Positions 4,066 to 17,074 of a stretch of 17,074 bases of DNA are shown here, one piece after another. The stretch's first letter is position 1; each line of letters opens with the position of its first letter. The notes below the pieces were generated by a model. That model ran no database searches. It was not told where the DNA came from and was given only the letters and a program-made list of their open reading frames with translations. A program made the position numbers and the translations under genes. The stretch comes from Candidatus Bipolaricaulia bacterium (GTDB lineage: Bacteria > Bipolaricaulota > Bipolaricaulia > JBHIAT01), in NCBI GenBank assembly GCA_046758705.1, contig JBHIAT010000069.1:1-17074 (forward strand), written 5' to 3'.

Positions 4066-4165
4066 GTCGATGTGGTGGACGGCATCGGGACGCTTAGAAA
4101 GACCTGCCGAGACATACCTCGTTGGCGTTTCAGCGATTTTAGGGAAGGTCTAGCTCCGCGCCCCC

Positions 4166-15204: not shown

Positions 15205-15687
15205 ATGGGATTGCATTCGTCGGTTCAGAAGGTTCAGAAAGCGCTCAACGAGCGCGGGTTGGACGTGGAGATTATCGAGTTTTCCAAGAGCACCCGCACG
15301 GCGGCCGAGGCGGCCGAGGCGATCGGGACGAGCGTCGCTCAGATCGCGAAGTCGTTGATCTTCCTGGCCGGCGATGAGCCGATCCTGGTCATCACCTCCG
15401 GCGCTAACCGGGTGGACACGGACAAGCTCAAAGCGATCACCGGACGGGAGATCCGACAGGCCGGTGCTGATACGGTCCGAGACGCGACCGGCTACCCGAT
15501 CGGGGGTGTCCCCCCGGTCGGGCACAGGCAGCGACTCACTACTTACCTTGATGAAGATTTCCTCAAGTTTGAAACGATCTATGCCGCTGGTGGAACGCCC
15601 AATGCGATCTTTCCGATCTCTTCTCGAAAATTGATCGAGATCACCGGCGGCAAGGTCATAAACCTCAAGGAGGAGAGCGGGGGGTAA
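15205..15687 (+). CDS. YbaK/EbsC family aminoacyl-tRNA deacylase
   Basis: TRTAAEAAEAIG...QIAKSLIF, SGANRVD, ATGYPIGGVPPVGH, YAAGGTP. GGAGG SD before ATG 15205; extended -10 TGTGcTATGAT at 15164-15174. Confidence 0.92.
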   Translation: MGLHSSVQKVQKALNERGLDVEIIEFSKSTRTAAEAAEAIGTSVAQIAKSLIFLAGDEPILVITSGANRVDTDKLKAITGREIRQAGADTVRDATGYPIGGVPPVGHRQRLTTYLDEDFLKFETIYAAGGTPNAIFPISSRKLIEITGGKVINLKEESGG

Positions 15688-15731
15688 ATGATTGGGTTGT
15701 GATGCTGACGGCCTCCGGCGATCAACACCTA

Positions 15732-15761
15732 TTGACAGATGGATGCTAAATGATATATTAT
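15732..15761 (+). promoter_or_regulatory. Putative promoter; 18-bp repeat copy 2
   Basis: TTGACAGATGGATGCTAA (15732-15749), identical to 9952-9969, followed by TATTAT at 15756-15761. Confidence 0.5.
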
Positions 15762-15871
15762 GTAAAAAACTGACAAGAAAGTTCAAGAACTGCGCAGATT
15801 TATAGTTATGTCACCGTCAGGAATCCGGACAAAATCAAGAATTTGTTGGATGTCTTGGAATAAATAAATGA

Positions 15872-15944
15872 CGGTATAATAAAATAGGGGGTGCGCAGCT
15901 ATCCGGTGCTCTTTAGGAAGCTTCCTATTTCGCCTATTATACCG
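15872..15944. repeat. Long nested inverted repeat in non-coding DNA
   Basis: CGGTATAATA (15872-15881) / TATTATACCG (15935-15944); inner AAATAGG / CCTATTT; overlapping palindrome TAGGAAGCTTCCTA (15914-15927). Confidence 0.6.
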
Positions 15945-16060
15945 CACCGTAACCGTAGGAGATCATACAAGCTTCGCATATCCCACCCCTGTCTTGTAAG
16001 GAAACGACAATATATGGATACGATATATGATGGGTAAAAAACTTAAGGCTGAGGTAAAGA

Positions 16061-16314
16061 GTGAAACGGCTGCGTAAATTCCTACTCCTCACATCGACCG
16101 ATCGGCGCCTGTTGGTCAGAGCCACGCTTCTGGTTTGGGTGATCAGGTTTGGGCTGTGGCTGCTTCCGTTTCAGACCCTTCGGCGCCTTCTGGCTCGTGT
16201 GGCACAGGCACCCGCCGGGTGGCGCAATTCCGGCTCATTATCTCCAGACCGGATCGCCTGGGCCGTGGCGGTGGCAAGCCGGTACGTGCCGGGAGCCGGA
16301 ACCTGTCTGACACA
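16061..16314 (+). pseudogene. Lasso-peptide B2-like (transglutaminase-like) peptidase, truncated by IS insertion
   Basis: GAGG SD + GTG; LWLLPFQTLRRLL...IAWAVAVASRYVP..TCLT matches the N-half of lasso B2 proteins up to the catalytic Cys. The frame stops at 16319-16321 inside IS sequence, so the His/Asp half is absent. Confidence 0.75.
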
Positions 16315-16339
16315 TCCATGAAAGCGCTGCTTTTGTCAA

Positions 16340-16530
16340 GCCCCCCTTCTCCTTCAGCTTAATGACTCTGATCTCACCCAACGGTCCTGCTTACTTAACT
16401 CAGGCCGATCTTGCCGGAAACATCCATTCGCCGTCTTTTCTCGCTCTGCTTGCGGCATGAGTGTATTCAACCGGGGTGTCGCAATCATTTGTCGTATCTC
16501 TTCGGATACATGTTTAGCTCGCGCTTACCT
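16340..16530 (-). ncRNA. Putative bridge RNA / seekRNA of the IS110-family element
   Basis: Stem - 9x9 internal loop - hairpin at 16480-16523, and an 8-nt copy of the element-end sequence at 16420-16427. Boundaries are approximate. Confidence 0.55.
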
Positions 16531-17074
16531 CGGCTTTGGCAAAACCGTGTTCGCCTTCGGTTCCCTGTAAGGTTCCCTCTTCTTCAACACCCAGTAAGCC
16601 GCCTCAGAAAGATGCCGGGCCACCGCCCCTACCGCTATGGCAGGCCCCCTCCGACTTCTGATCCGCTTGTACAGACGGGTGACGTGCCGCTGCTGCCACC
16701 CTCTACGGTTTTGATGCCGGACCACCACATTCGCCGCCTCGATGAACGCCCACTTCAGATACCGATTGACATCCGGACGCGTCCTCCCATGCCTGACCTT
16801 GCCCCCGCTGGCTCTGACCTTCGGCGTCGTCCCACAATAGCTCGCCAACCGCCCGTTGTCCGGGAAGCGATCAATACAGCCCACTTCCCGCTCGATCACG
16901 ATCGCCAGAATGTCTCCCACTCCAGGAAGCGTCTTGAGCAACTTCATCTTCTCCGTCACTTGGATCCGCTCTTTCATCCGCGCTTCGAGCTGGTCGATCT
17001 GCTCTTGAACCTCATCCAGCACCTCGAGATGCTGTTCCAGGCACCGACGGGTCTCAGGCGGCAGCTTTTGGATC
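16525..17074 (-). CDS. IS110-family transposase/recombinase, 5'-partial
   Basis: Frame is open to the window edge; LLKTLPGVGDILA, IDRF, LASYCGTTP..ASGGK (conserved Ser), NRYLKWAFIEAA, AIAVGAVARHL. Confidence 0.93.
   Translation of the reverse strand, partial: IQKLPPETRRCLEQHLEVLDEVQEQIDQLEARMKERIQVTEKMKLLKTLPGVGDILAIVIEREVGCIDRFPDNGRLASYCGTTPKVRASGGKVRHGRTRPDVNRYLKWAFIEAANVVVRHQNRRGWQQRHVTRLYKRIRSRRGPAIAVGAVARHLSEAAYWVLKKREPYREPKANTVLPKPR

Follow-up and report, generated by a model that had tools for sequence, protein, structure and literature searches.

What does the non-coding DNA behind the transposase gene of an insertion sequence encode, and does it account for the site at which the element now lies? 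This question is raised by positions 1 to 17,074 of contig JBHIAT010000069.1 from the Candidatus Bipolaricaulia bacterium assembly GCA_046758705.1, a stretch of 17,074 nucleotides (nt) referred to here as the window. The window closes with 760 bases from the 3′ part of a minus-strand insertion sequence. An initial annotation, made from the letters alone, had proposed that the region downstream of its transposase holds a candidate bridge RNA of the IS110/IS1111 type, with guides matching the element's own end and its target. Comparison with related elements indicates that this tail very probably does encode a bridge/seek RNA, of about 130 nt. It is covariation across the family that supports a guide RNA, and not a single-sequence fold or a shared 8-mer alone. 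From these data we infer that the RNA would be made, bound by the recombinase and used to direct recombination.

Coordinates are window positions throughout. The window is contig C69 of a genome of 3.7 Mb in 319 contigs, which is 93.9% complete; C14, C27, C114, C118, C127, C141 and C215 are other contigs of the same genome. Three sequencing runs with contigs that span the element's end are hydrothermal-vent metagenomes, all from one study.

Fold of the tail and ends of the element

We evaluated the tail against those of its relatives. A scan of prokaryotes, with one genome per species, returned 79 loci encoding relatives of the C-terminal half of the transposase, whose best-segment identity is mostly 48-66%, with two outliers at 36% and 27%. 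Two loci that stop before the stop codon, 10 without a recognisable tail and five identical duplicates were removed, and the remaining 62 tails were aligned with those of the window and of a sibling copy on C14 to give an alignment of 64 sequences, A1. Five helices, P1 to P5, run through this alignment (Table 1). Across the five, 89.1% of cells form standard pairs, and sliding the 3′ partners by 1-3 columns lowers this figure to 33-41%. Both-side (compensatory) changes are found at 23 of the 27 pairs; 0 of 500 shuffles reached any of five measures. The initial annotation had named covariation across homologous non-coding regions as a check on its proposal, and it is this result that supports the fold.

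The RNA would begin to fold inside the last transposase codons. P1 is 9 base pairs (bp) long and P2 is 4 bp, with the stop codon in a bulge between them; together they would form a long stem that closes a target-binding loop, and a donor-reading module would come next. The closing pair of P2 is G-U in 62 of the 64 sequences, which fits an RNA from the transposase-sense strand rather than a DNA hairpin or the opposite strand. In the window, the stem, 9 × 9 loop and hairpin described earlier as following the stop codon are present as CGCG(A) at 16523-16519, AGCTAAACAT, GTATC at 16509-16505, CGAAGA, GATAC at 16498-16494, GACAAATGAT and TGCG at 16483-16480.

The protein and the ends both class the element as an IS110-family insertion sequence of the IS1111 group, in agreement with the initial annotation. 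Its transposase open reading frame (ORF) matches PF02371 in Pfam (E 2.7e-22) and NF033542, 'IS110 family RNA-guided transposase', in NCBIfam (positions 177-343 of 343, E 6.6e-36). The ORF also matches the solved IS621 and ISCro4 transposases (IS621 8wt6, E 5.8e-10), and the Ser of its motif GTTPKVRASG (RASGG) aligns with the Ser of the IS621 ESG. The window ORF covers the C-terminal half alone; the N-terminal DEDD (RuvC-like) domain, PF01548, was found on the sibling C14 (E 7.7e-10), and a sequence search with the N-terminal part matched no solved structure. The subterminal inverted repeat is 13 bp long (group range 7-17 bp), and the same repeat occurs in related loci. Left ends read ...TG-ATTATA-TGAAAGCGCTGC and right ends GCAGCGCTTTCA-TRGA-TG..., with TG at both junctions. 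A junction model, LT-TG-ATTATA-TGAAAG ... CTTTCA-TAGA-TG-RT (where LT and RT are the left and right target flanks), fits 31 of 31 two-ended elements. The TG core suggested at the outset is thereby recovered at the junctions of all of these, and copy-to-copy homology ends at 16312, where the initial annotation had placed the element's end. The non-coding stretch between the stop (16525) and the element's end (16315) is about 210 nt, as compared with about 100 nt from the left end to the ATG in the C14 copy. Repeats of 13 bp, TG junctions and a longer downstream non-coding end are defining features of the IS1111 group (PMC11187229; here and below, published systems are cited from the relevant sections of the papers named).

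Table 1. Features of the window copy and its right flank, with predicted bounds for the candidate RNA
Feature	Position	Strand	Basis or partner
Transposase, C-terminal 182 codons + stop (TAA, 16527-16525)	16525..17073	-	ORF, cut by contig end
Conserved structured guide RNA (putative bridge/seek RNA), helices P1-P5, predicted bounds	about 16404..16535	-	Alignment A1, 64 tails
P1 5′ arm AGCCGAGGT, in last transposase codons	16527..16535	-	Pairs with 16469-16477; both-side changes at 9/9 pairs
P2 5′ arm CGCG, closing the predicted target-binding loop	16520..16523	-	Pairs with TGCG 16480-16483
Target-binding loop, 5′ strand AGCTAAACAT	16510..16519	-	Reverse complement A-TG-TTTAGCT
P3 hairpin GTATC-CGAAGA-GATAC, within target-binding loop	16494..16509	-	Both-side changes at 4/5 pairs
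Target-binding loop, 3′ strand GACAAATGAT	16484..16493	-	Same sense: left flank ACAAA + TG + AT (left-end start)
P1 3′ arm ACCCCGGTT	16469..16477	-	Covariation, 64 tails
Second loop, 5′ strand GAATACACTCAT, candidate left-end guide, weakly supported	16457..16468	-	
P4 hairpin GCCG ... CGGC	16430..16456	-	Both-side changes at 3/4 pairs
Second loop, 3′ strand GAATGGATGTT	16419..16429	-	Same sense: right-end TGGA + TG + handshake TT
P5 hairpin TCCGG-CAAGA-TCGGC	16404..16418	-	Weakest helix, 60% and 85% of cells paired
Outward TTGACA, predicted -35 of promoter completed in excised circle	16334..16339	-	Starts 25 nt before core TG
Right subterminal inverted repeat GCAGCGCTTTCAT	16318..16330	-	Pairs with ATGAAAGCGCTGC of left ends on C14, C127, C118
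Core dinucleotide TG, right junction	16313..16314	-	Element's own bases end at 16315
Right flank: truncated transglutaminase-like (lasso-peptide B2-like) ORF 16061-16321, running into element end	16061..16312	+	

Excision would join both ends at a single TG, giving a predicted circle junction of ...CATGGA-TG-ATTATATG.... With the ends joined at one TG, 31 of 31 elements have a -35 of TTGAC[A/C/T], a spacer of 17-18 nt and a -10 of [G/T/C]ATGAT, in which the final two bases of the right end, the core TG and the opening two of the left end come together. In the window copy these would be TTGACA, 17 nt and GATGAT. No promoter-like site and no terminator-like site was found in the linear window sequence. 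Given that the motif appears at the junction of every one of the 31 elements and nowhere in the linear sequence, the outward TTGACA noted earlier near the element's end, and found at 16339-16334 on the minus strand, is most likely half of a circle-junction promoter, a feature already known in this family. The TTGACA-17-GATGAT promoter created by the joined ends would drive the transposase and then the RNA behind it, and the recombinase-RNA complex would insert the circle where the DNA has the sequence given by the loop.

The window copy has several siblings in its genome. C14 holds the only full copy, 89% identical and about 1.38 kb long. Its transposase reads as 127 codons, one in-frame TGA and 224 further codons, about 352 in all (group norm about 330-350 amino acids); this TGA, at about 22872-22874 (locus L002), falls between the DEDD domain and the remainder of the protein, and the copy is probably a pseudogene. 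Further pieces are a 5′ part on C127, a left end on C118 and right ends on C114 and C141. The C114 piece (C114:7917-7983) is a solo end, comprising the last ~62 nt of the right end and lying inside its contig. Its flank and that of the C141 copy (C141:1-64) are alike for about 38 nt, which may reflect a duplicated target or a larger repeated unit. A distant, 5′-truncated related copy (C27:10913-11900, about 66% identical) carries its own version of the RNA with a much enlarged P3 hairpin; its right end is decayed, and its end is not definable.

Loop strands and the DNA that they would read

By the published definitions, each guide module has one strand that pairs with the top and one that pairs with the bottom DNA strand, with the core included in every pairing (PMC11208160), and handshake guides read the partner DNA after strand exchange (PMC11208158). 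We compared the loop strands with the DNA around 31 elements for which the locus includes both ends and 15 more in which a right end could be recognised. Three elements were set aside from the guide comparison because an inserted hairpin misaligned the 5′ loop strand, and the window copy, which was missed by the end pattern, was scored separately.

The 5′ strand of the first loop is antisense to the core TG and the right flank. Its reverse complement reads (A)-TG-right flank, the A being one base that matches the right end, and the cognate match is 5.65 of 7 positions against 2.72 (standard deviation, sd, 0.23) for shuffled pairings across 34 distinct guides. The 3′ strand of the same loop has the sense of left flank-TG-AT, with a cognate match of 4.28 of 6 against 1.91 (sd 0.30) across 18 distinct guides. 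Neither cognate score was reached in any of 10000 shuffles. In the second module, the 3′ strand repeats the right-end 4-mer that precedes TG in 51 of 51 elements; six kinds of 4-mer are involved (TAGA 33, GAGA 10, GATA 3, TATA 3, TACA 1 and, in the window, TGGA 1), and locus L072 was left out of the count for its unclear register. The two handshake bases that follow the TG both agree with the opening bases of the right flank in 40 of the 51; one of the two agrees in 8, and neither in 3. For 30 distinct cases the handshake match is 1.53 against 0.60 (sd 0.13), again with 0 of 10000 shuffles reaching it. The loop strands covary with the flanks and with the element's end, and they constitute a readable guide code. 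The proposal that the loop behind the stop codon is a guide loop stands on both of its strands.

Variation between close copies follows the same code. Natural retargeting is seen among the relatives, where L060 and L063 differ by one base in the guide and by one base in the flank. An A/G difference inside the RNA, ATGGATGT in the window and ATAGATGT in C14, is mirrored at the termini of both copies. The 17-kb window contains the 8-mer ATGGATGT exactly two times, at 16312-16319 and at 16420-16427, in each case on the minus strand, and these are the two copies that the initial annotation had reported. Alone this pair is weak, as 27 of 200 whole-window shuffles give at least two matches; the repeat is meaningful because the family follows the same rule in 51 of 51 elements, and the identification of the internal copy as the donor guide holds on that ground.

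The initial annotation had assigned the strands of the first loop the other way round, with the 3′ strand (GACAAA...) pairing with the element's own right flank, the 5′ strand (GCTAAACA) mirroring the left flank, and the copy seated at its cognate target. The antisense match on which this was built does exist, GACAAA agreeing with TGTGTC (the core and first flank bases) at 5 of 6 positions. This is nonetheless a chance level of agreement, as 17% of 10-nt strands drawn at random agree equally well with that 17-nt flank, and by the family rule it lies on the wrong strand: the 34 distinct guides put the 5′ strand antisense to the right flank, and the 18 put the 3′ strand in the sense of the left flank. 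Both the pairing with the right flank and the expectation of a left flank resembling GCTAAACA are reversed by these data, and we regard the original assignment as very improbable. Also very improbable is the reading that the fold is only a cis element of the transposase mRNA, serving as a terminator, stabiliser or translational control, with incidental matches to end and flank. P1 does overlap the last codons and the stop codon, and no RNA run is among those listed as holding the stretch, both of which would suit such an element. It would leave unexplained, however, why unpaired loop strands covary with DNA outside the RNA, at the flanks and the element's end. No terminator-like site was found, and homologous IS1111 tails yield transposase-bound guide RNA experimentally (PMC11187229).

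A number of results weigh against the interpretation of the tail as a working guide RNA. The homologs are interrelated, and the shuffle tests consequently overstate their independence. P5 is a weak helix, an Rfam search of 15600-17074 matched no family, and single-sequence folding energy is ordinary when set against shuffles (z 0.39 and -0.74). The left-end guide is weakly supported, the second-module 5′ strand matching the left end at 3.30 of 6 positions against 2.78 (sd 0.12; 20 distinct guides, with 1 of 10000 shuffles reaching this) in a register that is not fixed. At L014:3013-3250, seen by eye outside the set of 51, the RNA donor guide is TGGA-TG and the right end TAGA-TG, the sole exception seen to the rule that held in 51 of 51. 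None of the sequencing runs listed as holding the stretch is an RNA run. As regards completeness and activity, neither the left end nor the left flank of the window copy was found in the assembly, and the sole full copy in the genome, on C14, is interrupted by its in-frame TGA. In the window copy itself, the actual right flank, TG-TGTCAGA, agrees with the guide no better than non-cognate pairs do, at 3 of 7 positions, and the handshake TT agrees with the flank TG at 1 of 2.

In some relatives a guide strand is interrupted by an additional hairpin of about 22-26 nt, with the adjoining guide bases unaltered. It is located in the target-loop 3′ strand of L015 and L042, and just before the donor guide in L017, L018, L029, L038, L050, L066, L067, L075 and L078. 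A left-end-like sequence lies inside the gene region of L014. The hosts of the 79 loci are mainly uncultured Chloroflexota-type bacteria known from metagenomes, together with many other phyla and one archaeal genome. The labels include Chloroflexota, Spirochaetota, Planctomycetota, Verrucomicrobiota, Actinomycetota, Acidobacteriota and others, and the archaeal label is Candidatus Methanosuratincola (L039). This spread across phyla suggests either wide horizontal transfer of the subfamily or binning errors.

The window copy at its present site

A match of 3 in 7 argues that the present right flank is not the cognate target of the window copy, contrary to the own-target match claimed in the initial annotation. 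The window guide spells (A)CAAA-TG-TTTAGC(T) with handshake TT, and its donor guide, TGGA-TG, is that of its own right end. The C14 loop reads TTCAAT and its flank TTCAATG, a match of 6 of 7, whereas the window loop reads TTTAGC, an instance of natural retargeting within one genome; the window guide agrees with the C141 copy's flank at 5 of 7 positions, better than with its own. Single contigs with zero differences span 16100-16750 in two sequencing runs and 16100-16736 in a third, and one of these runs may be the source of this DNA. With spanning contigs in three assemblies, the linkage of flank, end, loop and gene is real and not an assembly chimera.

We also evaluated the flanking gene and looked for unoccupied sites. 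The flank ORF aligns with positions 3-60 of 117 in PF13471 (E 4.2e-5; 23.9 bits, under the 26-bit cut-off), and a PF13471 search of the assembly for the other half of this transglutaminase-like gene gave weak, unrelated matches alone. For an orthologous empty site, 0 of 40 relatives hold the locus, the nearest of them sharing class only. Comparison of the flanks of all copies with their own genome gave no empty sites and no repeats. Guide-predicted 13-nt targets have 16 and 20 matches genome-wide at up to two mismatches, as compared with 82 expected under uniform composition, and these counts are uninformative.

How, then, did this guide come to lie beside this flank? The copy may have inserted off target on a partial guide match, or a sibling copy with a different loop may have supplied the RNA that guided it in trans, and we hold this to be a serious possibility, if somewhat short of an even chance. 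At least two loop variants coexist in the genome and more element variants occur in the same samples, and half-match off-target insertion is reported for IS621 (bioRxiv 10.64898/2026.08.31.748434). Against this, a half match is uncheckable with the window copy's left flank missing from the assembly, and none of the three RNA copies in the assembly has a loop for TGTCAG. The copy could instead have entered a cognate TG-TTTAGC site and later lost its right flank to a deletion or recombination at the right junction, such that the end now abuts a truncated gene. We consider this possible, though we would hesitate to lean on it. The transglutaminase-like ORF stops at profile position 60 of 117 with its other half not found in a 94%-complete assembly, and bridge recombinases are known also to excise and invert DNA (PMC11208160). 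Yet the missing half may lie unassembled next to this copy's left end, the junction has kept its TG core precisely, and neither an empty site nor the locus itself was recovered among the 40 relatives.

Least likely of the three, and in our view improbable, is that the guide mutated after a cognate insertion and that the copy is decaying. The pseudogene on C14, as the sole full copy in the genome, would be in keeping with such decay. This explanation requires, however, that about 4 of 7 guide positions changed while all helices remained intact, and the handshake TT sides with the guide TTTAGC and not with the flank TG.

Other observations bear on the sites and variants of the subfamily. At about 4128-4140 on the minus strand of C215, downstream of a permease-like gene, lies an unoccupied TAGTA-TG-TTCAATGG. 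Its right side is homologous to the C14 right flank, and on the left it resembles the left flanks of C14, C118 and C127. It looks like an empty target of a C14-type guide. In the same samples as the window there are other element variants (16298-17074, runs X1-X4), with a summed depth above that of the single-copy flank and including changes at loop position 16490; several guide variants seem to coexist in the community. The neighbouring ORFs both appear to be ordinary housekeeping-type genes, namely a YbaK-type aminoacyl-tRNA editing domain protein (PF04073; 15190-15687, plus strand) and a glyoxalase/bleomycin-resistance-fold protein (PF00903; 14729-15091, minus strand).

Relation to known bridge and seek RNA systems

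The claim of a 'new programmable recombinase-guide pair' in the initial annotation was overstated, as this kind of system was published in 2024 (PMC11187229, PMC11208160). The mechanism is already known, and the element is a well-supported further example of the known bridge/seek RNA type, not a new system; the ISfinder-wide bridge-RNA predictions (PMC11208160, Supplementary Table 5) might already list relatives of the subfamily. The findings here leave the known mechanism unchanged, and the disagreement between guide and site in this copy is an unexplained detail. The insertion sequence does account for a truncated gene and for several contig breaks in the genome, and the mismatch offers one small natural example bearing on off-target or secondary recombination.

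RNA-guided IS110/IS1111 recombinases are in development as genome-editing tools, and design rules as well as new orthologs can be drawn from a subfamily whose code is readable across more than 60 natural variants. The code covers the loop bases that read the right flank, the left flank, the element's end and the handshake positions. Only tentatively would we go further and see in the window copy an assembly-verified natural case of an element at a site spelled neither by the target guide nor by the handshake, a record from the wild of half-match or trans-guided insertion, or of an RNA-guided junction deletion. Alongside it would stand a fully readable code of four guides plus handshake, mirrored with respect to IS621, in a widespread subfamily through which vent and subsurface bacteria could readily supply new programmable recombinases.

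Among the closest known systems is the seekRNA of the IS1111 elements ISEc11, ISPa11, ISKpn4 and ISPst6 (Siddiquee et al. 2024, PMC11187229). As in those elements, a DEDD transposase with a G--P----SG motif is combined with subterminal inverted repeats and a longer downstream non-coding region, the top- and bottom-strand target matches overlap at the insertion point, and relatives have been naturally retargeted via loop changes only. The top-strand match is placed 5′ of the bottom-strand one here, as published for the IS1111 seekRNA (PMC11187229), and a bridge RNA is predicted in the right end of 93% of IS1111 elements (PMC11208160). The differences are that the DNA sequence appears to be unrelated to that of the four elements, and that the subfamily is known here from sequence alone. 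The hosts also differ, the subfamily occurring in uncultured, mostly Chloroflexota-type metagenome bacteria and the window coming from a hydrothermal-vent metagenome. The donor-reading strand and the handshake bases, resolved here by covariation, are not described in the relevant sections of PMC11187229.

A likeness of another kind is to ISPpu9 (PMC12288879). This IS110-family element has the gene for its small RNA, Ssr9, downstream of the transposase gene, and it has several circular intermediates. As described in the abstract of that paper, ISPpu9 targets repetitive extragenic palindromes in Pseudomonas, unlike the subfamily analysed here.

The IS621 bridge RNA and recombinase (Durrant et al. 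2024, PMC11208160; Hiraizumi et al. 2024, PMC11208158; PDB 8wt6) are also a close system. In common with IS621, the subfamily has two guide modules with one strand for each DNA strand, handshake bases after two of the guides, a circle-junction promoter and an aligned catalytic Ser, although the protein is only distantly similar to the IS621 transposase over its C-terminal half. Unlike IS621, whose RNA precedes the gene in the left end, the subfamily would carry its RNA in the right end, after the gene; its guides are in mirrored order along the RNA, TG takes the place of CT as the core, and the subterminal repeats are long, at 13 bp. By our own analysis, reading the element on its opposite strand would give the exact IS621 order, that is, left target guide, right target guide + handshake, left donor guide, and right donor guide + handshake. 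The apparently reversed order would then amount to a flip of the gene and its RNA relative to the recombination site.

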